Of a stretch of 64,000 nt of DNA, positions 1,975 to 56,614 are shown one piece after another. This stretch comes from Asterias amurensis. Taxonomy: Eukaryota. The DNA is taken from assembly GCF_032118995.1 (NCBI RefSeq), contig NC_092652.1, positions 15,752,336 through 15,816,335 of the forward strand, in the 5' to 3' direction. The stretch's first letter is position 1, and every line of letters starts with the position of its first letter. Position numbers and translations under genes: made by a program. The notes beneath the pieces were generated by a model, which saw only the letters and a list, made by a program, of their open reading frames with translations, was not told where the DNA came from and did no database searches.

Positions 1975-3030
1975 TTTGATAGTGAATATGTTCTCGGCCA
2001 TCCTTTAACCTCTCCTTACCAATATCTTACGAAAAATACGTACGCTTTACTAACAGTACCAATGGCTTACCAATGGCTTACCAAATGCTTACGCAAATCG
2101 ATGGCGAAGTACCGTCTTCACAACGTTCGCTGAATGTACGGAAGCGCTTCGTATTGCCGCTCTCACCGAATGGCGAATGTTCTTGCGAACATGAATATTT
2201 GAACATGAATATTTGAATTTGTCCAACATGGCGGTTGGATAGTGAATATTTTCAGCTCGGTCTCACCCCTCGATCGACCTCGGTCTGCCCACTCCTTACC
2301 AATATCTTACGAGTACATTACGAATGCTTACCAACGCTTGCCAATGCCTTTACGAACGTTGCAAACGCTTACGCACGCTTTACCAACGTTACCAATGCTT
2401 ACGAAAATCACGCCGAGTGACCGTCTTCGCAACATTCGCTGAAATTAACAAACCGGTTTGTAAATTGAGCGATCGACGTAAGGAGGTGGGGAATAATTTG
2501 TGAACGTTCCGAATTTGTTACCAACGCTTACGGAGACCCGGCGAATGCTGCGAAGTTTGAGCGATTGTCAAATATTTCCTTCCGATAGCACATTCGCTAG
2601 CATATTCGCCGTGTGAGAGCAGCATAAAGTGACCGATCTTCGTAAGGAGGTGGAGAATGACTTGTGAACGTAGTGACTTTGTGGCGAATGTTGATAAGTT
2701 TGAGCGAATGTTAAATATTTCCGTTCGTAAGCACATTCACTAGCATATTCTCCATAGTGTAAGAGTAGCATCATGCCGAGCAAGAAAATCACTTTCTCGA
2801 TTTGCACATTAAAATACAGTATTAAAAATAGCACAAAACATACATGAACCGTATACATTAAAACAGCAACAATAAATAATAAAAAAAGGAGGTGAAGAAT
2901 GACTTGTTAACGTAGTAGTGAATTTGTGGCGAATGTTACGAAGTTTGAGCGATTGTTAAATATTTCCGTTCGTCAGCACATTCGCTAGCATATTCTCCCT
3001 ATTGTGAGAGTAGCATTAATGAATGCCAAG
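1975..3030. repeat. Cluster of tandem repeats (2 x ~270 bp then 3 x ~165-180 bp) upstream of PARP4 promoter
   Basis: repeated tccttaccaatatcttacga...gaccgtcttc.caac.ttcgctgaa units and cgtaaggaggtgg.gaat.a.ttgtgaacgt...tcgctagcatattc units. Confidence 0.75.
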
Positions 3031-3583
3031 TGCAAGACTGCGAAACGCTTTTAGAACTTATTGGGATAGAGAAAGACATTATTTATACCTCTCGTAATAA
3101 TGAATAAATATAAATAATTCAAGGTATAATAAAATTACTTGTATTTGACGTATCAAAGTATAACTGATTTGGCAAGGGTAATAAACGTTAAGTGGGTCAA
3201 ATCCTGAATTATCTGCACAAAATTATACGGGTATTCGTGCACGACCTCGATATGAAAAGACCGATTTGTTTTCGTACAAAACGACGGATATGCTCTTCGT
3301 TTCAATTTACTGGTGCACTATTGTTTTTTTTTACTTTTCAAAAAGGCCGAAAAAGACTGAATTCCAGAAGCCCTTTTGACAAATTAAATATTCATAACGA
3401 GGTCACGCACGAATCCCCATGATTATTTTGCAGATAAAAAGGAACGGATGATGTGTGTGCTGCAGAATAGCCTGCATAATGACTGATACTTGTTCATATG
3501 ACTCTCTCTTCTCTCAATATCCCTTTAACGCTTCCGTGTACAAGACACGTGACCTATCGAAAGGTGTACTTTCGCTTTACGGG

Positions 3584-3591
3584 TATATAAA
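3584..3591 (+). promoter_or_regulatory. Candidate TATA box (TATATAAA) of PARP4-like gene
   Basis: gggTATATAAAgcag seen about 90 bp upstream of first in-frame ATG (3678) and first GTAAGT donor (3698). Confidence 0.4.
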
Positions 3592-3677
3592 GCAGAATGT
3601 CACCAGTTGCGCACTCAGCCGGCTGTTCAACATCAGACCAGTACACCTGTCCTTCAAGTGTACAATGAGCATTGAAA

Positions 3678-3697
3678 ATGAGTGATGCTGCAAACAG
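3678..3697 (+). CDS. PARP4: PARP4-like exon 1 (coding part, start codon)
   Basis: ATG in gaaaATGa context, donor cag|GTAAGT at 3698; 20 nt + exon2 79 nt keep frame: MSDAANSVWKWGDPAAPGFPEHLYDIAKSAAFQ; tiny overlapping uORF ATG at 3665. Confidence 0.4.
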
Positions 3698-3710
3698 GTA
3701 AGTAATGTAC

Positions 3711-4096
3711 TTAAAGGCATGGACACTATTGGTAATTGTCAGAGACCAGTCTTCTCACCCGGTGTATCTCAACAAATGCATAAAATAACAAACCTGTGAA
3801 AATTTGAGCTCGATTGGTCATCGGAGTTGGGAGAAAATTATGAAAGAAAAAAACACCCTTGTCACACGAAGTTGTGTGCTCTCAGATACTTGATTTCGAG
3901 ACCTCAAGTTCTAAATCTGAGGTCTCGAAATCAAATTTGTGGAAAATTACTTCTTTCTCGAAAACCACGTCACTTCAGAGGGAGCTGTTTCTCACAATGT
4001 TTTGTACTATCAACCTCTCCCCATTACTCTTAAACAATAAAGGTTTTATGCTAATAATTATTTTGAGTAACTACCAATAGTGTCCACTGCCTTAAT
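3711..4096 (+). mobile_element. MITE family A, full copy (in PARP4 intron 1)
   Basis: both TIRs present, flanked by TTAA contexts. Confidence 0.85.
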
Positions 4097-4099
4097 AAA

Positions 4100-4472
4100 G
4101 CCATTGGACACTTTCGGAACATAATTTTGTTTTAAAGTTCACAGATTTACAAATACTTTACAGGGTTTACAGAAGGTAATAGTGAAAGACTTCTCTTGAA
4201 ATATTATTCCATGAAATACTTTACTTTTTGAGAAAACGTTTAAACAATATCAATTCTCGATATCGAGAATTACGGATTTATTTTAAATACATGTCATGAG
4301 ACGGCGAAACGTGCGGAAACAAGGGTGGGTTTTCCCGTTATTTTTCCCGACTCCGATGACCAATTGAGCCTAAAATGTTCACAGGTTTGTTGTTTTATAT
4401 AAGTTGTGATATACGAAGTGTGGACTTTGGACAATACTATTTACCAAAAGTGTCCAATGGCTTCAAGGTATA
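4100..4472 (+). mobile_element. MITE family B copy
   Basis: TIR ccattggacactttcgg...ccaaaagtgtccaatgg; 3-prime portion related to family A (cgactccgatgaccaattgagc...cacaggtttgtt). Confidence 0.7.
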
Positions 4473-4658
4473 ATGCATATATTTTTTATATAAATATATA
4501 GCATGGACGAATGAAACAGTACACCAAGCATCTGTAAACTTTATAATTGTAAATATTATATTTACTGTTAAAACCAAACAGTTATATGCTGGTTTGTTTG
4601 TTTTTCAATAGACAGTCATAATATTAGAGGTGATTTCTTTTTGTGATTTTTTTTTCAG

Positions 4659-16015: not shown

Positions 16016-16962
16016 TGTAACGAAATGGTACCGCGCGGTGGCGCTCCAGGCTTAGCGCGAGAGTAGGCGCCCTTAGCGCGCGAAAAGGCGGTTTGGCGCG
16101 GCGCTGGCTGCCGCGGGGCATTTTGGGAAGCACGCTGCTGCCTCGTGCGTGGGGAGTGCGTAGCGGGCAGTTGCAGACTGGACAGCGGATGGTACAGACG
16201 TGTTTTCAATAGTGGTGTTTAACAATTGGCGGGGAGGATTAAGGCGGCGACGTGACTAGCGTGTTCACGTGTCGGGAGTAGTAGCAGGGCTAGCGTGGGG
16301 AGTTTTGGGAGTTGCGGTGCGTGCTGCTGACAGTTGTGTAACCGAGGGGTAGGTTTCATTGGATTATTTTCTGTGTTATTTATGGCAAGTTGGACGTAGA
16401 GACGTGCGATAATCCACTCCCGTAAGGAGGTCACATTGCATTGTATTGTTTGCTCTGGAGTCCGAGATTCTATCAGGCCCTTAAGGCATATTCTATTGTG
16501 TATTGTATTGGTTGCTCGGAGTTCGGGATTTTATCAGGCCCTAAAGGCAGCTTTGGTTTTACTGTAAATGCAGTTCAGTTACTTTAAGTTAGTTCCAGTT
16601 ACCTTAAGGGATTTTCCAGTTGCTTAAGGGATTACCAGTTACTTAAGGGATTTCGGTGACCTTAAGTTTAGTCAGTTGCCTTAAGGGACCATTTCTGGCC
16701 TTAAGTAAAGGAAGATTGCGTAGTTGGAATCAGGAATTACTGTGCTTTCGTAGGGATAATAAATAAAACGGATCAATAGTCAATCAGTAACTTGTCTCAG
16801 CCCTCACTCCTTGGAAGTCAACAGTTTCTTACAGTTTCTAGACCCCTTCCCCCACGTTTTTATTACATGCGGCGATATACGGTTGCCTAACGACCTCACC
16901 CCAAGTGCCAGCAGGACTACCGCTCGTCCTGTGCTGGTGACCACCAGACGGGAATCGCTACA
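16016..16962 (+). repeat. 5-prime LTR (947 bp)
   Basis: identical to 22147-23093 except about 3 substitutions (near 16062, 16364, 16573); contains tandem 20-bp CCTTAAGGGAT-type subrepeats. Confidence 0.9.
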
Positions 16963-16980
16963 TTGGTGTCAGAAGTGGGA
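16963..16980 (+). other. Putative primer binding site (TTGGTGTCAGAAGTGGGA)
   Basis: begins TGG immediately 3-prime of the 5-prime LTR. Confidence 0.4.
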
Positions 16981-17035
16981 TTTGCTGTAATTTTTGTGGG
17001 AGACAGGGTTATTCTAGAGCTGTATAACGGACTGC

Positions 17036-18292
17036 ATGATGGACCGGATGGATTCAAGGGCAATGGAGGAGGAGTTGGAGGTGCTTCGGATGGAGGTTCA
17101 TACAGCCGAAAATATAGTCGAGGATGCTGTCGAGGCCAGGCGGGTAATGGAGGAGGAGTTGCGCAGGATGCGTATGCAACACGCAGAGATGGAAGAGAGA
17201 CATAAGTCGGGCAGGGTCCTTGGAGCCCCTACGCCAGACATGTTTTTCAGCACTCCGAGTCCTGTGGTTTCCGGTACACTTAGGGACACCTCAGGAGCAG
17301 GATTCACACCTGCAAACACAGTTGCAGACACAGAATTCACAAGAGAACAGGAGGTGGGACGTAAGGAGGATGCGACTACTACCAGCCCCAAGGTGGACAG
17401 ACCTCGAAAACCGAACATTTGCCCGGATCGTTTCAATGGGAAGGTTCCTTGGAATGACTACAAGGCTCATTTCCGAGCTTGCTGCGTGGCGAATGCCTGG
17501 AGTGACGAGCAGGCGGTCGTGTTTCTCGCTGCCAGCCTCCAAGGGCAAGCGTTAAAGGTGCTGAGATGCCAGCCGGAGGGGAAGAAGTCGTCGCTTAAGG
17601 ACTTGATGCTCCGTCTGGACCAGAGATTTGGCCCGGGCCAACAAGCAGATTTCCATATGATGGAGGTGAGGCACCGTCGGCAGGGCGAAGTGGAAACACT
17701 GCAGGAGCTAGGGACGAGCATAAGGGAGCTATCTGCATTGGCCTACCCGGAATTCTCCGACGATAGCCGGGAACGGTTGGCTAAGGGACATTTCATGGAT
17801 GCGGTCAAGGACCGGGAGATTAGGGAAGGGATATTCCGGGTAAGCCCAACCTCTTTAGATGACGCCATTAGGGCCGCTCTGCAGACAGAAAGTTTCCTTC
17901 GGACAGAGGAACATAGGACCAATGGGAGGGGGAGAAAGTTTGCAAGGGTTGTTGCAGGAGGAGAGGACGAGGTCTCTCTGCAGGGTCTACAAGGAGAGTT
18001 AAGGGCCACTCAGGATCGCATGTCTAAGGCTTTGGGTGGAATACATGCCATGTTGGAGGACCTGTCACGTTCTAAGGGGGATTACCAGTCGGCAGTTCCA
18101 CGGGGAAGGTCAAGTGCAGACTATGCCTGTTACAACTGTGGCAAAAAGGGTCACTTCGCGAGGGAATGTTCTGAGCCGAGAAGGGAAAGGAGCTGGCAGT
18201 CGGGAAACGCTACCCAGCCAACCGTGGGGCCCAATGGAAGGCTGGAAATGGAGGAAGGACACAAAGAAACTTCCAAGGAGGGCCAGTGCTAG
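17036..18292 (+). CDS. gag: Gag polyprotein (418 aa) with capsid-like region and CCHC zinc knuckle
   Basis: ORF track; CYNCGKKGHFARECSE zinc knuckle; retrotransposon-gag-like FNGKVPWNDYKAHFRACCVANAWSDEQ; N-terminal Glu/Arg-rich coiled-coil-like stretch. Confidence 0.85.
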   Translation: MMDRMDSRAMEEELEVLRMEVHTAENIVEDAVEARRVMEEELRRMRMQHAEMEERHKSGRVLGAPTPDMFFSTPSPVVSGTLRDTSGAGFTPANTVADTEFTREQEVGRKEDATTTSPKVDRPRKPNICPDRFNGKVPWNDYKAHFRACCVANAWSDEQAVVFLAASLQGQALKVLRCQPEGKKSSLKDLMLRLDQRFGPGQQADFHMMEVRHRRQGEVETLQELGTSIRELSALAYPEFSDDSRERLAKGHFMDAVKDREIREGIFRVSPTSLDDAIRAALQTESFLRTEEHRTNGRGRKFARVVAGGEDEVSLQGLQGELRATQDRMSKALGGIHAMLEDLSRSKGDYQSAVPRGRSSADYACYNCGKKGHFARECSEPRRERSWQSGNATQPTVGPNGRLEMEEGHKETSKEGQC

Positions 18293-20484
18293 GAATGTAT
18301 AACCAAGGGATAACGCTCTCAGGGAAGAGTTCGAATATGGCAGGGCTATATGTGACCGCTCAGGTACGAGGAGTAAAAACACAGATGTTAATCGACACAG
18401 GTGCGTCAAACACGGTGCTGTCAGCAGCAGTTTACTATCAAATGGCTCCGGAGGGGAGACCTTCACTGAATACGAGGGGAGCGAAGTTGTACGGGGCGGA
18501 TGGTAGCTCCATAGAGACTATTGGCGGAGCATTGATGGAGATCCAGGTTGGCAAGACAACCCTCCCGGTACATGTGATATTTGCAAAATTGGATTTGGAG
18601 GGGATATTAGGAATGGACTTTCTCCTGCCTACAAATGGACGACTGGACTTCAAGGACATGGTGTTGACCCTGAATGGAGAACGAATAAGGTGCCAGAACG
18701 GTCAGGGTGCGAACGTTTGTGCACAGTGTGGAATGGAAGGACCGGACCTGGGTGGCCAGTTGCGCAAGTCAGGAGGAAGTGAAGGGATAGTGCCTGTACC
18801 GGATAGCGATGAAGGAGATAGTGGCCCTGCAGGAAAGGCTGAGGAAGCCAAAGCTGATTTGCGCGCCGTGGGTGTACTACCCCAAATAACCAAGGCCGAC
18901 TGGAGGGAGGCACAGCTTAGGGAAAGCTCTATGGAGTGGGTCATCAAGGCTAAGGAGGCCGAGGTACCCAGGCCAGACTGGGAGACAGTGTCAGTAACAT
19001 CCAGTGCAAGCAAGAACTATTGGCTACGATGGGAGCAGCTACTTGTTCGCGACGGCGTACTACAGCGTCGGTGGGAGTCTCACAATGGAAAGCAAACGCA
19101 GTGGCAAACCTTGGTACCTCAGGAGCTCCGAGGAGAGATATTGCATGAGCTCCACGCAGGAAGGCTGAGTGGACACTTAGGAACCAAGCGAACAATGGCG
19201 AAGGTGCACGGCAAGTTCTATTGGCAAGGGATGGCTGCAGACATAAGGTCCTTCATCCGAGAGTGTGATGTGTGTGCTAGGAGGAAGTCCCCCAACAAAA
19301 AGAGAAGGGCCCCTTTACAGCAACACCTAGTGGGAATTCCGATGGAGCGAGTAGCGATGGACATTACAGGACCCTTCCCAGTGACGAAGAATGGCAATCG
19401 TTACATACTTGTGATTGGGGACTACTTCAGTAAGTGGTTCGAAGCCTACCCCATTCCAGATGAGAAGGCAGAGACTGTTGCGGACAAGTTCGTCAAGGAG
19501 TTCGTGTGCAGGTTCGGCGTGCCTAAAACACTGCATACCGACCAAGGGAGAAATTTCGAGTCGAGGCTCATGGCCGAGGTGTGCAGAACGCTTGGGATTG
19601 AAAAGACCAGGACCACCCCCTACAACCCCAAGTCTGACGGAATGGTTGAGAGGTTTAACCGCACCCTGGTTAATATCGTAGCCATGCTGATGAAAGAACA
19701 AGCAAACAATAAGGACTGGGACGAGGAGTTGCCTTATGCGACGGCTGCTTACCGCAGCACACCACAAGAGTCCACTGGGGAAACCCCAAACATGCTGATG
19801 CTCGGTAGGGAAGTCTCTCTGCCCCTTGATTTGACAGTGGAGGAGCCCCCTGCAGGCGACGCAGATGGGAAGGAGGAGCGGGACTATGCCCAAGTGGTGC
19901 GTGAGAGAATGCAGGGCGCACATGAAAGGGCTAGAGCACGCTCGAAGAAAAGTGCAAGACGTCAGAAACAAAACTATGACAAGGGGACCAGCGAGGGCAA
20001 CTTTGCTGAAGGCACGTTCGCCTGGTTGTTCAACCCAGCGAAGAAGAAGGGGGTGTCACCCAAGTTGATGTGTAGGTGGGAAGGACCCTACCTTGTAGTA
20101 AACAGGCTGTCGGACGTAACCTTAAGGATACAAAGGAAGCCTGGAGGGAAAACGAAGGTTGTTCACTGTGACCGCCTTAAGCCGTATCAAGGTGCACCCT
20201 TACAGCCTTGGATGTCAGATGCAGACGAAGGGACGCAGGCCCTGCAGGGGCAACCCGCAGGAGATATCCCGGTGGATGATGCATCCCAGGTGGAAGTGAT
20301 TAATAGCCCGATGCCAGCGGGCCAGGTAGAACCAGAGACACCTGAAGGTGACCGGGAATCCTCTGAAGATATGGGCCATGCGGATCCTGCTCAGGTATCT
20401 AGACCCTTAGACATGACACCGTTGCCTGCACAGGCGAGACGGAATCCGTTGCGCCAGCGGAGGCCGCCACAGCGGTATCTGTAA
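18286..20484 (+). CDS. pol: Pol (732 aa) = aspartic protease + integrase only; no reverse transcriptase/RNase H
   Basis: -1 frame relative to gag with 7-nt overlap; LIDTGASNTV and GILGMDFL protease motifs; H-x3-H...C-x2-C zinc finger (HELHAGRLSGH...CDVCARRK); integrase D (VAMDITGPFP), D (LHTDQGRNFES), E (MVERFNRTL); GPY/F tail (WEGPYLVVNRL); no YxDD motif anywhere. Confidence 0.85.
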   Translation: MLGMYNQGITLSGKSSNMAGLYVTAQVRGVKTQMLIDTGASNTVLSAAVYYQMAPEGRPSLNTRGAKLYGADGSSIETIGGALMEIQVGKTTLPVHVIFAKLDLEGILGMDFLLPTNGRLDFKDMVLTLNGERIRCQNGQGANVCAQCGMEGPDLGGQLRKSGGSEGIVPVPDSDEGDSGPAGKAEEAKADLRAVGVLPQITKADWREAQLRESSMEWVIKAKEAEVPRPDWETVSVTSSASKNYWLRWEQLLVRDGVLQRRWESHNGKQTQWQTLVPQELRGEILHELHAGRLSGHLGTKRTMAKVHGKFYWQGMAADIRSFIRECDVCARRKSPNKKRRAPLQQHLVGIPMERVAMDITGPFPVTKNGNRYILVIGDYFSKWFEAYPIPDEKAETVADKFVKEFVCRFGVPKTLHTDQGRNFESRLMAEVCRTLGIEKTRTTPYNPKSDGMVERFNRTLVNIVAMLMKEQANNKDWDEELPYATAAYRSTPQESTGETPNMLMLGREVSLPLDLTVEEPPAGDADGKEERDYAQVVRERMQGAHERARARSKKSARRQKQNYDKGTSEGNFAEGTFAWLFNPAKKKGVSPKLMCRWEGPYLVVNRLSDVTLRIQRKPGGKTKVVHCDRLKPYQGAPLQPWMSDADEGTQALQGQPAGDIPVDDASQVEVINSPMPAGQVEPETPEGDRESSEDMGHADPAQVSRPLDMTPLPAQARRNPLRQRRPPQRYL

Positions 20485-20631
20485 TTAATTAGCTCTGGAG
20501 TATTGGGGGGATCGATTGTATGGTACTAGGACAACAAAGGCGTAACGTAGGAGTAGCAAACCAGTATGGGGGTAACTGCAGTGAAGTAACTGTTGCTTTG
20601 TTTGTTCTTTTTCTTTACAGTATAAAGGAGG

Positions 20632-21651
20632 ATGGAGGACCAAGAGCCAGGATGGAAGAGACCGAAGGACTGGGATAAGATGAAGCTATACGCATGTTCG
20701 GAGTGTGACGACACCTTCGTGAGCAAGAAGAGTCTTGAGACCCATCTGGGGACTCACACCACCAAGAAGAAGATCCTGTACTTCTGCAAGAGGTGTGACA
20801 GGAGATATACAAGGAAAGACAACCTGAAGGTTCACTATACCAACCACCACCCTGCAGGGATGCAGGACCTGGATACGCTGTACCCAGAAACGGAGGAAGA
20901 ACGGAGAGCTGCTAGTTCCCCAGGAGACGATGTGGATGTTCCGGGTGATTCCCCTGCCCCCTCGGGACGCAAGAGGAAGGAAACGGAGGTGACCAATCCC
21001 AGACCCAGAAAGGAGTCCAGGAAGAGGAGAGAGTGCACCGAGAAAACCAGGGAGCCACAGAAGGAAGAGGAATCGGCTGAGGAGACGCAGCTCCCCTCAA
21101 CTCCTGGGAGGAACCGGGTGATACAGGAAACGGCGGAACTGTCCTTGTCGCCAGCGTCAGTTTCCTTACTGGAAGAGGCGGGTCCTCGGCGCCGGGTAGT
21201 CCATGGAGGGAAACCTCGGGGTATGATTTCGATGATGAAGGATGCCCAGGAAGAGGGTACTGACGAGGAAGGAGTGGAGGACAACAACGACGCTCCTTTG
21301 TCCATTAATCTGGGGCGAGCACTAAAGGGAAGCACCCTACGATACAACGAAGGAGACCTGCAACAACACGTCTTTCAACCAGCTCAGGGTGTTCGACACG
21401 GGCTGGGACAAGCCGCACCGGTAGAGGAACCACCACAGGCGAGAGTGTGCCGGATCAATCGAGGCAACCCGGGGTGGCGAAAAGCAGTGCCACTTGATAC
21501 TGCTGACCTGGAGGTGATGATGGCTGGAAACGTCCGTAAGGTGAGAGAAGTCAACACAAGAAGCCAGTTTCAGAATGGCCTCAAGATCTCCGAAGAGGTC
21601 GTCGAGCGGACATACGACGTGCAGTTCACGGCAGGGTTTATCCTCAAGTAG
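20632..21651 (+). CDS. ORF3 (339 aa) C2H2 zinc-finger protein in env position of the LTR element
   Basis: two C2H2 fingers (YACSECDDTFVSKKSLETHLGTH; YFCKRCDRRYTRKDNLKVHYTNHH), then acidic/Ser-Pro-rich low complexity and a C-terminal ~100 aa unique region; intact ORF. Confidence 0.7.
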   Translation: MEDQEPGWKRPKDWDKMKLYACSECDDTFVSKKSLETHLGTHTTKKKILYFCKRCDRRYTRKDNLKVHYTNHHPAGMQDLDTLYPETEEERRAASSPGDDVDVPGDSPAPSGRKRKETEVTNPRPRKESRKRRECTEKTREPQKEEESAEETQLPSTPGRNRVIQETAELSLSPASVSLLEEAGPRRRVVHGGKPRGMISMMKDAQEEGTDEEGVEDNNDAPLSINLGRALKGSTLRYNEGDLQQHVFQPAQGVRHGLGQAAPVEEPPQARVCRINRGNPGWRKAVPLDTADLEVMMAGNVRKVREVNTRSQFQNGLKISEEVVERTYDVQFTAGFILK

Positions 21652-22134
21652 TTGTAGTCCACTTTAGGCTCGTTTTTACTAAAGCGTTACTTGTTTATAA
21701 CCTTGTTTTCTTTCAGTATAAAAGTTGTCTAAGAGAGTATATTTTGATAACAGATCTTGCCTTTGTAATCTTGTGTAATTCCCTTAAGGATTAGGTTACG
21801 AATTTGGATTGTATAACGTGATTGTGTTATGATTGGATTTGATTTGTATAAACTCCCTTAAGGAGACATTGTGATTTTTGAAATGTGTTTTACTTAAAGT
21901 TCCCTTTAGGAGCATTAGCAGACTCTTGCCTTAAAGTGTGTAAACCTCCCTTAAGGAGGCATTGTGATAACTTATTGTTTAAGCTCCCTTAAGGGGCCCC
22001 TTTGTTACTTAAAGGTGTCCGGCAGGTGCATTGTGGTGTATAAAATAACTATTTCTCTGTATAAATTTGTAAGCACCTTGAGGTACATTTCGTTTTTAGG
22101 GTATCAGTTTTACGGACCGGGTGGTCCTAACTTA

Positions 22135-22146
22135 AGTGGGGGGCTG
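22135..22146 (+). other. Putative polypurine tract (AAGTGGGGGGCT)
   Basis: purine-rich run directly upstream of 3-prime LTR. Confidence 0.45.
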
Positions 22147-23093
22147 TGTAACGAAATGGTACCGCGCGGTGGCGCTCCAGGCTTAGCGCGAGGGTAGGCG
22201 CCCTTAGCGCGCGAAAAGGCGGTTTGGCGCGGCGCTGGCTGCCGCGGGGCATTTTGGGAAGCACGCTGCTGCCTCGTGCGTGGGGAGTGCGTAGCGGGCA
22301 GTTGCAGACTGGACAGCGGATGGTACAGACGTGTTTTCAATAGTGGTGTTTAACAATTGGCGGGGAGGATTAAGGCGGCGACGTGACTAGCGTGTTCACG
22401 TGTCGGGAGTAGTAGCAGGGCTAGCGTGGGGAGTTTTGGGAGTTGCGGTGCGTGCTGCTGACAGTTGTGTAACCGAGGGGTAGGTTTTATTGGATTATTT
22501 TCTGTGTTATTTATGGCAAGTTGGACGTAGAGACGTGCGATAATCCACTCCCGTAAGGAGGTCACATTGCATTGTATTGTTTGCTCTGGAGTCCGAGATT
22601 CTATCAGGCCCTTAAGGCATATTCTATTGTGTATTGTATTGGTTGCTCGGAGTTCGGGATTTTATCAGGCCCTAAAGGCAGCTTTGGTTTTACTGTAAAT
22701 GCGGTTCAGTTACTTTAAGTTAGTTCCAGTTACCTTAAGGGATTTTCCAGTTGCTTAAGGGATTACCAGTTACTTAAGGGATTTCGGTGACCTTAAGTTT
22801 AGTCAGTTGCCTTAAGGGACCATTTCTGGCCTTAAGTAAAGGAAGATTGCGTAGTTGGAATCAGGAATTACTGTGCTTTCGTAGGGATAATAAATAAAAC
22901 GGATCAATAGTCAATCAGTAACTTGTCTCAGCCCTCACTCCTTGGAAGTCAACAGTTTCTTACAGTTTCTAGACCCCTTCCCCCACGTTTTTATTACATG
23001 CGGCGATATACGGTTGCCTAACGACCTCACCCCAAGTGCCAGCAGGACTACCGCTCGTCCTGTGCTGGTGACCACCAGACGGGAATCGCTACA
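22147..23093 (+). repeat. 3-prime LTR (947 bp)
   Basis: direct repeat of 16016-16962, starts TGTAACG ends GCTACA. Confidence 0.9.
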
Positions 23094-25820: not shown

Positions 25821-26600
25821 GTAACACAGAATTTGACTGCTTGTTTTGTTTGTATCGTTTTGCTTTGTAGTTTGTTGTGTATTTTGTGAAGTTGTTTGCT
25901 TTGTGTTTTACTAACTGTATGTGAGTTTGTTTTTTATTAAACTTCATCGAAGTACTTCAACCAAAGACATATTTTGAACCAAATGTCCATGGATTGTAAT
26001 AATGTTTTTTAAACTTTTTTACATATCTATAGTATACAATTTAAACACGTTTTCCTTACAACAAAATTTTATGTTGTATTTTCTTTTGGTTTTCAGATAC
26101 ATTTTTCTTTGAATTTCAGAGGGATGTATGTAACAGGAAAAATAGTTCTAGATGAACCGGTCAATTAAAACTAGTTTCTGTGTGTATCTTTTTTTTTTAA
26201 ACGGGCACTTTTTAAGGGGCTTGTACTAGGAGGTATGATCAAATTGTCTGTGTGTTTACATAGAAAAGAAAAAACATTAATATATGACATTTTATTCTGT
26301 TATTTCTTTTTAAATAGAGTTTAGAATCTAGAGATCTCCGGAATTCAGATTGGGTTTCACCTGGGAGCTTAAGTATATTGGAGGGTTTCCTTTTAAAATG
26401 AATTTTGTTTACACAGCAGCTGCGATAAGAGAATATCGGGACATGAACATGTTTTGTGATTTGTTGCGACTGGGGTCACAAAGTTGAAAGGTTCTTAATT
26501 TGTTTTTGGTTAAATTTATGCGGTACAGTTTTATTTCAATAAACGAGATTTTCTTTTAATTTGTTTTCTTTGCAACAAATAGGCCGTCTATCTACGACAG

Positions 26601-26787
26601 GCCGCCATGCTGGTATTTTATCCTGAACTGGATGTGAGTAACTTAGCTAATCCAGAGATGGTCCTTGTGATGGATTCATCAAACTCCATGAAGGGAAGCA
26701 GTCTTGAAGAGGCCAAGAAGTTACTGCTTCTTATTGTGCAGAATCTTCCTTCAAGTTGTACCTTCAATGTGGTAGTCTTCGGTACAG
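26601..26787 (+). CDS. PARP4: PARP4-like exon, VWA domain start (MIDAS motif VLVMDSSNSM)
   Basis: tctacgacag| acceptor, cag|gtagct donor; AAMLVFYPEL...VMDSSNSMKGSSLEEAKK...FNVVVFGT. Confidence 0.8.
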
Positions 26788-27388
26788 GTAGCTAGGCCTT
26801 TATGCATCTATGGTTGCAGCTTTCACACACGGAAACCATGGGATTTTAAATCTCTAGCTAATGCTTCAAAGCTATTTTTGAAGATTCACTGTTTTTAGCA
26901 TACTTCATATTGATTTAAAATCAACAGGGGTACTTCAGAAGAAAAGGTTTCGCAGAATGCTTACTATCAATATCATCTTTAGCCCACCGATTGTTTATCG
27001 AAATTTAATAGAAAGTTGTATGGAATTACTGTTTTTCTGTCAAGAGGTATTTTTTTTATAAAATGTCAATATCATGGACTATTGAGATATTTTCTATAGA
27101 ACAAAACAAATTCTCAGAAAATTTAAGAGATTTACGTCGAAACTTTTGTAAAAAGGTCTACGGACTTCTTAAAAAAAATTCTACTAACTATAGAATGTAA
27201 ATGTTATGGAAGTTTTGAACAGTGATATACTCTAAAATATTCTATATACATTACAAAATATAGGCCTATAGAAACACACATTATTTTCTTTTAGTGGCCC
27301 CTCTTTTCTGTTGAATTTCTTAACAATTTATATTTCTAAATAATTGATCCACTACAAGTTATTTTAAGTCATAATTTTATTAGTCATT

Positions 27389-27540
27389 GGGTGCGTTCGT
27401 TAACCTTCCCTGGGTCGACCCCGGTGTGTGACCTGTTTTTTTTCCCAGGACGAACGTGTGCAGACAATTACCCACGTTCGTCCTGGAAAAAAACCCGCCA
27501 CACACAGTGGATGACCCAGGGAAGCTAAACGAACGCACCC
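27389..27540. mobile_element. Small foldback MITE (TIR gggtgcgttcg...cgaacgcaccc)
   Basis: 150-bp near-perfect hairpin; termini shared with element at 1401-1647. Confidence 0.55.
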
Positions 27541-27548
27541 ACTATTAA

Positions 27549-28148
27549 GCCGGTTCATACTTCCTGCGAATGCGAATGCGAAGCGAATTTGACGTGAATT
27601 TGACGTCACACCCTCCTATGGCAAGCCATATGCCCAATAATTCGAAAAACAGTGTTTATCACCGATAACTCTGTTTATCGAAAAACTAGGTTTATCAAAA
27701 AACCTTGTTTATCAAGTGATAAACTGTGTTTATCGAAAAACTCTGTTTATCACTTCGAAAAACTCTGTTTATCGCTTGATAAACAAAGTTTTTCGATAAA
27801 CAGTGTTTATCAGTTGATAAACACTGTTTATCTCGATAAACTCTGTTAATCGGCGAAAAACAGTGTTTATCGAGATAAACTAAGTTTATCAAATGATAAA
27901 CAGAGTTTTTCTCGAAAAACAATGTTTATCGGTCGATAAACAGTGTTTATCGGCGATAAACTTAGTTTATCGGCTATAAACACTGTTTATCAAATTTTTG
28001 GGCATATGGCTTGCCGTACCCTCCTTTCGCAGCGATTATCGCAAGGGAGTAAAGCAGAGTTCAACTGCTGCGAATTGTTCGTTGCGAATTTGTGACGTCA
28101 AGATTCGCTTCGCATTCGCATTCGCAGGAAGTATGAACCGGGCTTTAC
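27549..28148. mobile_element. Composite MITE with 42-bp TIRs and internal array of ~18 palindromic 17-bp motifs (GATAAACAGTGTTTATC)
   Basis: TIR aagccggttcatacttcctgcgaatgcgaatgcgaagcgaat / attcgcttcgcattcgcattcgcaggaagtatgaaccgggctt; array 27650-27990. Confidence 0.7.
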
Positions 28149-28169
28149 TGTGGGTATTGACCCCTTGCA

Positions 28170-28272
28170 CGTATGTGCGGCACCATAATGTAGCCCGAGC
28201 CCTAAATGTAGCCCGGACCTAAATGTAGCCCCAAGGGCTCGGGCTACATTATGGTGCCGCACACACGTACGT
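28170..28272. repeat. Near-perfect ~45-bp-stem hairpin
   Basis: tgtgcggcaccataatgtagcccgagccc ... gggctcgggctacattatggtgccgcacaca. Confidence 0.75.
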
Positions 28273-28568
28273 CACACGCGGCGACTGTGCCACGGTCACC
28301 ATACTGGTGGGCAAGAGGTTTACATGTATTAAAACGCTGTGTCTCCTAAAATGTGCACTTCACTGAATAACGCACAGAGTATCATTGTCCACCAGAATGG
28401 CGGGCTGAAGATTACTATAGGTGAATTGGGTCAAAAACAGTTTCTTTTCGGATTTGACTCTCTCTCTCTTTAAGTTGTATTATGTAACTTATGATAAATA
28501 GGTCTTGCAAAGGTTTGAATGACATTCTTCTCCTTTGTTCTCCTTTGTTTGCTCATTTTCGGGGACAG

Positions 28569-28827
28569 AGTTCGATGAGCTGTTTCCCGCAAGTCAACAA
28601 AAGAGCACAAAGACTGTTAAATTAGCCAGGGAATTCATTGAGGGATACAATGTTGGAGGAGGAACTGACTTCTGGCGCCCATTGCAGTCACAGAACTTGC
28701 TGAAACAGGAGCGCGCGCATAGAAATCTGTTCCTGGTAACTGACGGCCATTTGAATAACGAAGAAGCGACTTTGAGAGCTGTTGGACGCAACAGAGCCTT
28801 CACAAGAATCTTCACATGTGGTGTGAG
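28569..28827 (+). CDS. PARP4: PARP4-like exon, VWA domain (GGGTDFWRPL...LFLVTDGHLNNEEA)
   Basis: gggacag| acceptor with phase-1 join, donor ag|gtaaat; VWA metal-site motifs GGT..., TDG. Confidence 0.8.
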
Positions 28828-29282
28828 GTAAATTACGTCTACAGCAAGTGTTAAACTAAAATTGACAATCCATAAATGATGAGGAAGTGTTAAGCTAAAA
28901 TGTTCAATCTATATTTGGCCATTAAATTTCTTACCCATACTACAGGGCAGGTTTTGGCCATTCCCCGGGGTGGCACCATTAGCCGGGATTGACCGGGGTA
29001 AAAGTAGTCCAAGTGTGGAGGCTGGCCGGCACTTAATCCCGTGGTTGACTCTGGGGAATAGAGTTGCTTGAAAAGGGCTAGTTACTTCATGAAGTGATAT
29101 TTGGCTAAATGGTCATCATAGATTTGTCCTTTGAAAACGTAAAGGTTTGCCCTATAACCAAATAACTTTATGCAAAATTCAATGCTTGAATCATCAAAGG
29201 AACAAATATTCCCCTATCTGCTTCATTAGTTATAACTAATATCTTGAGATTGTCTTAACTTTGTTTGATTTGACTCATGTAG

Positions 29283-31888: not shown

Positions 31889-32193
31889 GATGAATTTTGA
31901 GACCCAATTATTTAGCACCTTATAAGGGTTTACAAGGTGCTACGGCGCATATAGCAGCCACAGCTAGGAACACCGGGGCGAACCCCTTCTCTTTTCGAAA
32001 AGTGCACTGGGTTCTTTTACATGCGTTACACAACACATGGGACAAACGGCTTTACGTCCCATCCAAAGGACGAAGCAATGGTTAAGTGTCTTGCTTAAGG
32101 ACACAAGTGTCACGGCTGGGGATTCGAACCCACACTCTGCTGATCAGAAACACAAGAGTTTGAATTCGGTGCTCTTAACCGCTCGGCCACGAC
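31889..32193 (-). mobile_element. tRNA-derived SINE, full copy
   Basis: reverse complement has tRNA-like head (gtcgtggccgagcggttaagagcac...gggttcgaatcccc) followed by gcttcgtcctttggatgggacgtaaagcc body and ggtgctaaataattgggtctca tail. Confidence 0.65.
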
Positions 32194-40999: not shown

Positions 41000-41560
41000 G
41001 CCCTTATGGGGCATCCTTACTGTAGATCGATGTAGACAAATTGCCAAAGTTTGGCATAATGTATATCAAAGTAGACATTGCCCTTATGGGGCATACTTTC
41101 TATCGATGTAGACAAATTGCCAAAGGTCGGCACAATGTATATCAAATGGGGCGTACTGTGTATCAATGTAGACAAACTGCCAAAGTTCGGCATGCATATG
41201 TATATCAATGTAGACAAATTGCCCTATTGGGGCGTATGCAAGTCAATGTAGACAAGTTGCCCAAGTTCGGGCATAATGTGGACAAGTTGCCCAAGTTCGG
41301 GCATAATGTGGACAAGTTGCCCAAGTTCGGGCATAATGTGGACAAGTTGCCCAAGTTCGGGCATAATGTGGACAAGTTGCCCAAGTTCGGGCATAATTGT
41401 GATATCAGTGTAGACAAGTTGCCCAAGTTGGGCCTTATACCAATGTGGACAGGTTGCCCATCCAATTTGGGCATACGATATCAATGTAGACAAATGGGTC
41501 AATACCCAAGTGGTGCATAATATTATGTATATCGATGTAAACAAATACTAATAGTGGGGA
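41000..41560. repeat. Minisatellite; core of 5 perfect 30-bp units (GTGGACAAGTTGCCCAAGTTCGGGCATAAT) flanked by 40-60-bp variants
   Basis: 41248-41397 perfect copies. Confidence 0.85.
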
Positions 41561-55950: not shown

Positions 55951-56614
55951 CTCGTTCTTAGTGCAATCCTAAATTAGGAAGAGTTTTGTGAAATCGGCAG
56001 CTGGTTCCGCAAAGGGGCATTTTTACCTGCTCGCGCAATGGCATTTTTAGACAAAAAATCTCAGGATAATGTCACAAATCAAAATAATGAACATACAATT
56101 AATTTAATGTGCATCTGTAAGGTTTTGACGGTTGTATAGGCCCTACTGCAAATGTTCTTGTAACTTCAGCTGATTATAGCCTAGATCATAGTCTTCCACT
56201 CAAATTCAAAGTGTACAATTGATTATTGGAATCGTTCGATTGTTCTAATCCCATATAAATGTAGATTGTTTGCAATAAAAGTGCTTTGTGAAGATTCCAT
56301 TTCAAAAGATAGACTCGTTTTGAGGTAGACCTTTTCGCAAAATACCCATTGCGCAAGCGCTATTAAACTGTTGAATGAGGTGCATGCTCATAGCCAGTAA
56401 TCAAACTGATCGCTAGCTAGACCAGCATGCACATACCACCCCCGTAGCGCGGTTAGGTACTGAGTATTTGCCATAAGGTCTATGAGTATATGAAACAAAA
56501 GCTTTTGATAGAATATTCTGCACATTAATATAGCTTCCCTCACTCATGTAAATGAATGTTTAAATAGCGAAAATACCTCTGAAACAAAATATTTGTGTAT
56601 GATTTTCACAACAG

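Follow-up and report, generated by a model that had tools for sequence, protein, structure and literature searches.

A palindrome-array element, probably of IS3EU/GingerRoot type, nested in a Harbinger-type MITE within an intron of a PARP4-like gene

Short motifs repeated beside the ends of a transposon are known from Ac, which carries AAACGG hexamers, from Hermes, which carries subterminal GTGGC repeats, and from En/Spm, whose 12-bp TNPA motifs stand in inverted pairs. Foldback elements have inverted ends made up of short tandem repeats, and the core repeats of pearl- and DTC84-type elements measure about 150 bp. A 3-bp TWA duplication at the insertion site is the hallmark of PIF/Harbinger elements. 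Among the tandem-repeat MITEs, pearl and DTC84 elements combine 1-5 core repeats with a microsatellite and have an AA target site duplication (TSD) (PMC3879986), and Rehavkus, which is related to MuDR, has a minisatellite just inside one terminal inverted repeat (TIR) and a 9-bp TSD (PMC6446971). TSDs of 6 bp are found with IS3EU elements, which have TA...TA termini (PMC10045372) that read TAYGG..CCRTA in fungi (PMC12730594), and with GingerRoot, a member of the same superfamily that occurs in coral, sea anemone and fish and whose 6-bp TSD is GC-rich (PMC6839031); hAT6 families also make 6-bp TSDs (PMC12730594). The reported TIRs are longer than 30 bp in fungal IS3EU elements and 100-150 bp long in GingerRoot (PMC10045372, PMC12730594, PMC6839031). 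Neither subterminal repeats nor cis-requirements are described in the accounts of IS3EU and GingerRoot consulted here, PMC10045372 and PMC6839031 included.

The locus considered here lies in a window of 64,000 nucleotides, by which we mean the whole stretch of DNA that was analysed. We think it likely that the region is a non-autonomous IS3EU/GingerRoot-type element nested in a Harbinger-type MITE, with an array of interrupted palindromes that would provide sites for the transposase or for an accessory protein. The array-bearing element is reminiscent of Ac, Hermes and En/Spm in having many short conserved motifs beside both TIRs, in both orientations and with variable spacers. These elements, however, belong to other superfamilies and have other TSDs, and their motifs are not 7-N3-7 palindromes, are usually fewer and do not follow one another almost without a break over the greater part of the element. 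The likeness to pearl, DTC84 and DINE-1-like elements lies in the lack of autonomy, the interior tandem array and the capacity to seed satellite-like DNA (PMC3879986). In contrast to pearl and DTC84, the family described here lacks a microsatellite and has true TIRs, a 6-bp TSD and 17-bp units in 17-44 copies; the tandem-repeat MITE model of pearl/DTC84 was rejected on this architecture. Repeat-bearing ends also recall Rehavkus and Foldback, and the inner element in its entirety folds into a single long hairpin (dG -134.9 kcal/mol, z = -25.7). Rehavkus, however, has long TIRs, a 9-bp TSD and a minisatellite at one end only, and neither Rehavkus nor Foldback fits the 6-bp TSD and TAYGG termini of the inner element. 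The nested insertion as such is ordinary mobile-element biology, and the array at both ends is a modestly interesting family trait.

Two nested elements in a PARP4-like intron

The DNA is of eukaryotic origin, and the host gene is PARP4-like and lies on the + strand. Its exons on both sides of the locus encode PARP_reg, PARP, VIT and VWA domains (Pfam), with the PARP_reg and PARP frames upstream and the VIT (E=5e-29) and VWA_3 (E=3e-21, joined exons) domains on either side of the element, which is the order of domains in PARP4 (vault PARP). The nested element is thus intronic, between two VWA exons of a PARP4-like gene (Table 1). These Pfam domains bear out the PARP4 intron proposed by the first-pass annotation of this DNA, which had also put the element about 400 bp upstream of a VWA exon at 28569; an AG acceptor indeed precedes this position, and the distance from the end of the element to the start of the exon is 425 bp.

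Table 1. Features of the nested insertion and its flanking exons (positions in the 64-kb window)
Feature	Position	Strand	Basis or remark
Upstream VWA exon, PARP4-like gene	26583..26792 (approximate)	+	Open frame, Pfam VWA
Outer MITE, left TSD, 3 bp TTA	27545..27547	.	Identical TTA at 28145-28147; other copies TTA/TAA
Outer MITE, left TIR, 41 nt, AGCCGGTTCATAC...	27548..27588	+	TIR also in 12 JACSEG01 contigs
Outer MITE, interior left of insertion	27589..27616	.	Colinear with short copies L004, L009, L010
Inner element, left TSD, 6 bp CCCTCC	27611..27616	.	Identical hexamer at 28019-28024
Inner element, left TIR, 27 nt, TATGGCAAGCCATATGCCCAATAATTC	27617..27643	+	27/27 versus L020 TIR; 24/27 versus own right TIR
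Array, 18 units GAWAAAC-N3-GTTTWTC, spacers 0-5 nt	27644..27991	.	Unit layout
Inner element, right TIR, reverse complement TACGGCAAGCCATATGCCCAAAAATTT	27992..28018	-	Inverted-repeat search
Inner element, right TSD, 6 bp CCCTCC	28019..28024	.	Matches 27611-27616
Outer MITE, interior right of insertion	28025..28102	.	Aligns with L004, L009, L010, L012
Outer MITE, right TIR, 42 nt, ...GTATGAACCGGGCT	28103..28144	-	Inverted-repeat scan
Outer MITE, right TSD, 3 bp TTA	28145..28147	.	Matches 27545-27547
Downstream VWA exon, PARP4-like gene	28569..28828 (3' end approximate)	+	AG acceptor 28567-28568

The outer element is delimited by an inverted repeat with 39 perfectly matching nucleotides (27550-27588 and 28103-28141) that occurs a single time in the window and that extends, with one indel permitted, to TIRs of 41/42 nt with ends AG...CT. 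Its span is 597 bp (27548-28144), of which about 189 bp made up the element before it was interrupted. A 21-mer of this TIR matched 12 contigs of one metagenome assembly (JACSEG01), and no match was found in viral contigs or in prokaryote genome contigs. Both outer ends are present in six of the 12 contigs, enclosing copies of 132, 143, 175, 177, 183 and 264 bp; the complete copies have the ends AGCCCGG...CCGGGCT and TTA/TAA flanks. The TSD reads TTA/TTA in the window and in L009 and TAA/TAA in L004, and has one mismatch in L006, L008 and L012. Short, non-coding, present in many copies, and provided with TIRs and a 3-bp TWA duplication, the outer element is, by these sequence features, a Tourist-like MITE of PIF/Harbinger type inserted at a TTA site. 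It shares with such MITEs the TTA/TAA 3-bp TSD, the TIRs, the absence of coding sequence, the length of 132-264 bp and the high copy number, but the copy in the window is split by the inner element, and its TIRs, at 41/42 nt, exceed the usual length in Tourist-like elements. The sequence data covered contained no autonomous copy of the outer element.

Two more short repeats are common to the window (32026-32095 and 56207-56308) and L005 (752-824 and 1127-1224) at about 78% identity, suggesting that the JACSEG01 metagenome may contain DNA of a relative of the window's organism.

Within the outer MITE, a second inverted repeat, absent from the first-pass annotation, brackets the array; it reads GGCAAGCCATATGCCCAA at 27620-27637, recurs on the other strand at 27998-28015, and in the window runs on into the first units, giving 52 nt at 88%. 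The insert that it delimits is 402 bp long (27617-28018), begins with TATGGCAAGCC... and ends with ...GGCTTGCCGTA, so that its termini are 5'-TATGG...CCGTA-3', and it consists of two TIRs with the 18 interrupted palindromes between them. The outer-MITE sequence to its left contains, along with the left TSD copy of the inner element, an 11-bp tandem duplication. Once 27617-28024 is removed, the outer MITE can be aligned with the short copies over its full length (81% mean column identity). The empty site before the inner insertion would have read ...GTCACACCCTCCTTTCGC..., and that of the outer MITE would have been a single TTA. An 8-bp TSD for the inner element (ACCCTCCT, as in hAT, P or Merlin) was considered and rejected, since further copies assign the terminal T...A to the element and leave a TSD of 6 bp. 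As the array is enclosed by a TIR and a 6-bp TSD of its own, the locus consists of two elements, unrelated to each other, of which one is inserted in the other. A short PIF/Harbinger-type MITE inserted at a TTA, and the 402-bp element later entered the interior of this MITE, duplicating CCCTCC.

The first-pass annotation had described a single MITE in which TIRs of 42 bp enclose an internal array. TIRs of this size do exist (41/42 nt, 39 of them perfect), but they do not belong with the array: the six complete outer-TIR copies contain no palindrome unit, the inner TIR is absent from all 12 outer-TIR contigs, and the outer TIR is absent from all of the array loci L018-L025. Occurrence of the TIRs apart from the array, which that annotation had named as evidence against its own reading, is what we found for the 42-bp TIRs, and the array accompanies the inner TIR instead. 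Its broader idea of a non-autonomous TIR element carrying an array of palindromic sites holds, although for the inner element with its 27-nt TIR and not for the one with the 42-bp TIR. For genome annotation, the locus offers a worked case of nested MITEs misread as one exotic element, since unrelated superfamilies contributed the outer TIRs on the one hand and the inner array on the other.

Relatives and affinities of the inner element

To find relatives of the inner element, we used as protein query the translation of a spurious minus-strand ORF within the array (27698-27925). A word-indexed protein search led to P0001, the contig of which is L018, and an exhaustive representative search gave 23 matches, 22 of which are translations of such arrays; P0011 was set aside as an unrelated bacterial repeat protein and not an array translation. 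A 1,615-aa query joining all reading frames of the array returned no match in the word-indexed protein search, P0001 included. Ten further contigs with such arrays were recovered in this way, L018 and nine more. The nine were drawn from three assemblies at ENA and one at NCBI, the latter being the source of L021.

L018 holds a 1.87-kb element with a non-coding interior and with about 41 units inside its left end and three inside its right end. Its first 40 nt are identical at both ends, and its TIR core, ATGGCGCGCCGTTTGCCCAATTATT, differs from that of the window at 5 of 25 positions. At 2501-2754, its otherwise heterogeneous array contains about 10-12 identical tandem copies of a 22-bp sequence (GATAAACTCAGTTTATCACTTT), a recent local amplification of one unit and its spacer. 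The L019 element measures 4.4 kb and bears 13 units at one end and 29 at the other. In L020, an array of over 900 bp comes after a TIR that is identical to that of the window at 27 of 27 positions. L022, L023, L025 and L028 carry elements of 560-1,100 bp, L024 and L026 carry degenerate copies, and L027 is the same insertion as L028 in the opposite orientation. Every copy with an intact TIR has the terminus TATGGC or TACGGC, in a TATGGC...GCCATA design, and has its first unit at nt 28 or 29. The array comprises 17-44 units across the family, and units are found at both ends even in the 1.9-kb and 4.4-kb elements, the interiors of which are unrelated. The arrays of all recovered relatives begin 27-28 nt inside either end, a trait of the family.

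Perfect 6-bp TSDs flank four copies, namely those of the window (CCCTCC), L019 (TGCGCG), L023 (CCCTCT) and L025 (AGTGTC). That of L028 matches at five of six positions (GTCATC/GACATC), and no TSD was seen around the complete copies of L018 and L022. The four perfect TSDs average 71% GC compared to about 39% for the window, a small sample of n=4. Two of them, CCCTCC in the window and CCCTCT in L023, are nearly identical, a faint hint, from far too few copies, of a target preference beyond GC-richness.

Some relatives contain further repeats. The L019 element has no transposase, and at 2382-3134 and 3200-4500 it has unrelated internal tandem repeats; one of them has a 51-bp unit reading as MVRIESGRTGRTDRRVR, and a second repeat family is present too. 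Within the array of L020, incomplete inner TIRs, such as CGCCATGATGCCCAGCAATTC, are found at 285-308, 428-445 and 612-640, one of them inverted, which suggests either that blocks were duplicated or that partial copies of this family are nested there.

No credible long ORF, and hence no autonomous copy or transposase, was found inside any element of the 11 array-bearing loci; the interiors in L019, L022-L025 and L026-L028 hold other tandem repeats or no ORF. Since these loci yielded no transposase, the superfamily of the inner element was assessed from its TSD and termini. The inner family has the 6-bp TSD of IS3EU/GingerRoot, and all of its intact ends read TATGG or TACGG, in agreement with the TA...TA and TAYGG...CCRTA termini of this superfamily. 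On these two features, we infer that the inner element is of IS3EU/GingerRoot type. Occurrence in marine animals adds to the likeness, and the GC-rich target hexamers, although few (n=4), may do so too. In contrast to the described elements, the copies of the inner family are all non-autonomous and without a transposase, and a unique TIR of 27 nt is followed by arrays of 17-bp interrupted palindromes where longer TIRs have been reported for IS3EU and GingerRoot.

The palindromic array and its possible readings

A search of the 64-kb window with GATAAACNNTGTTTATC at up to two mismatches gave 33 strand matches against 0.30 expected, and all 33 fall inside the array. The array comprises 18 units (27644-27991), one of which has a 1-nt deletion, and in each unit a 3-nt centre separates the 7-nt arms GAWAAAC and GTTTWTC; five of the 18 are fully self-complementary over 8+8 nt. 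This count agrees with the approximately 18 motifs of 17 bp reported at first pass, other particulars of which require revision. The motifs had been called perfect palindromes, which a 17-mer cannot be, and are composed of two arms and a variable 3-nt centre; they had been spaced at 3-8 bp, whereas the spacers measure 0-5 bp; and they had been said to make up almost the entire element, whereas the array accounts for 348 of the 597 bp between the outer ends (58%). The spacers vary in both length and sequence, and the commonest unit periods are 21 bp and 17 bp. As DNA hairpins, single units are weak (-2.8 kcal/mol, and -0.6 for the GAAAAAC variant).

The arms are nearly invariant, and the centre varies. 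In the window, the arms hold about 2 bits per position and the centre positions 0.1-0.95 bit. When 267 units of nine elements are pooled, the information content is 1.5-1.9 bits at arm positions 1, 2, 4-7, 11-14, 16 and 17 and 0.1 bit at position 9, while the arm positions 3 and 15 and the centre positions 8 and 10 are all W. The double-unit pattern and the inner TIR had no match in viral contigs, and literature searches on the 17-bp motif found no report of it. Five single double-unit matches in bacterial genomes were treated as chance, about 1.6 being expected by estimate.

Neutral decay would not be expected to spare two 7-nt half-sites at a fixed spacing, and the conservation of the arms suggests sites for a dimeric, sequence-specific protein. 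By analogy with the subterminal repeats of Ac, Hermes and En/Spm, which makes a transposase the likeliest candidate, the protein that reads the units is probably the cognate transposase. Transposase binding sites had already been put forward at first pass, and the near-invariant arms of the 267 units lead us to favour this reading. The units (GATAAACAGTGTTTATC) would bind the dimeric DNA-binding domain of the cognate transposase or of an accessory protein, and the presence of many sites by each end would recruit and concentrate this protein and help to pair the ends. The number of units would drift in both directions by replication slippage or unequal exchange. Two observations speak against a strict requirement for every unit: the range of 17-44 units and the identical 22-bp run of L018 show growth driven by slippage and imply that most units are individually dispensable. 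The array would have no role specific to PARP4.

More specifically, we tentatively predict, with somewhat less than even confidence, that the GAWAAAC-N3-GTTTWTC array is a multimeric recognition platform of an IS3EU/GingerRoot transposase. The inner family offers a concrete candidate motif for this transposase, a 7-N3-7 palindrome kept at a constant distance of 27-28 nt from either end. If the prediction is correct, no cis-acting binding motif will have been defined before for this integrase-related superfamily, which has been little studied, and non-autonomous members would multiply the site in competition for the transposase, in the extreme case consisting of TIRs and array only.

The same expansion could be read differently, as a neutral minisatellite that arose from a subterminal palindrome by slippage and plays no role, in which case the nested structure would be kept. 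AT-rich palindromes are prone to slippage, the copy number ranges from 17 to 44 between elements, the identical 22-bp repeats of L018 testify to recent tandem amplification, and the partial TIR copies in the L020 array suggest messy duplication. We nevertheless consider this explanation unlikely. Decay should strike all positions equally, whereas across the 267 units of nine elements the arms are near-invariant and the centre and spacers are free to vary. The arms are moreover alike in elements with diverged TIRs, the first unit of every copy keeps the same register relative to both termini, at 27-28 nt, and units flank both ends of the 1.9-kb and 4.4-kb elements despite their unrelated interiors.

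It is improbable that the inner element is instead a hAT element of the hAT6 group, with units equivalent to the subterminal transposase-binding repeats of Ac and Hermes. hAT elements typically have short TIRs and subterminal repeats, and TATGG fits four of the five positions of their terminal consensus, YARNG; this consensus, however, requires a purine at position 3, where all copies of the inner family have T or C. The 6-bp TSD is shared with hAT6 (PMC12730594), but TAYGG...CCRTA with TA...TA is the exact published signature of IS3EU.

A third explanation, that the host has co-opted the array as transcription factor sites (forkhead RYAAAYA or GATA-like) forming an intronic enhancer or sponge of PARP4, roles that had been raised at first pass, seems very improbable to us. 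The array does contain 18 RYAAAYA matches in 348 bp, a density of 52 per kb where the remainder of the window has 3.2 per kb, as well as 12 WGATAR matches, and it lies 425 bp upstream of an exon. The same arrays are found in every family member at unrelated loci, however, which makes this motif density a property of the transposon. The conserved G1 and C17 and the exact 7-N3-7 spacing exceed the forkhead core, and the array contains no TATCGATA (DRE) site. Hardly credible at all is a single MITE having the array as an internal module of its 42-nt TIRs, for although the array lies inside these TIRs and the 597 bp are roughly symmetric, the six unit-free complete copies, the array loci L018-L025 without the outer TIR, the array's own TIR with a perfect 6-bp duplication of outer-MITE sequence, and the colinearity with the short copies that excision of the insert restores all speak against it.

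Neighbouring repeats and other features of the window

At least four small foldback or TIR elements lie within about 900 bp of the PARP4-like intron. A separate foldback element of 154 bp (27388-27541), with 55-nt arms at 84% and a further, inner pair of arms, is separated by 3 bp from the TTA that precedes the outer MITE; no second copy of it was found in the 64-kb window or in the fetched loci. Downstream, a hairpin begins 21 bp past the TSD of the outer MITE. It had been annotated at first pass as a perfect hairpin at 28170-28272; the hairpin is real, at 28169-28268 (dG -43.9 kcal/mol, z -11.7), but its 35-nt arms (28169-28203 and 28234-28268) are 97% complementary and thus not perfect. Its loop contains 2.6 copies of a 17-bp repeat, AATGTAGCCCGAGACCTA. 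An Rfam search of the whole 64-kb window returned no match.

An LTR retroelement occupies 16021-22350, with its LTRs visible as identical ORF text at 16021-16209 and 22152-22340 and with a GC content of 51-53% compared to a background of about 39%. Its ORFs code for a gag-like protein with a zf-CCHC domain, for a protein that combines a protease with Integrase_H2C2, rve and Integrase_p58_C, and, in an extra ORF of 339 aa, for C2H2 zinc fingers. No reverse transcriptase or RNase H was found between the protease and the integrase, and an exact look-up of the gag ORF gave no match. The retroelement is either an internally deleted gypsy-type element or one of unusual architecture. Finally, a 30-bp minisatellite at 41026-41544 gives rise to VDKLPKFGHN repeats in ORFs on both strands.
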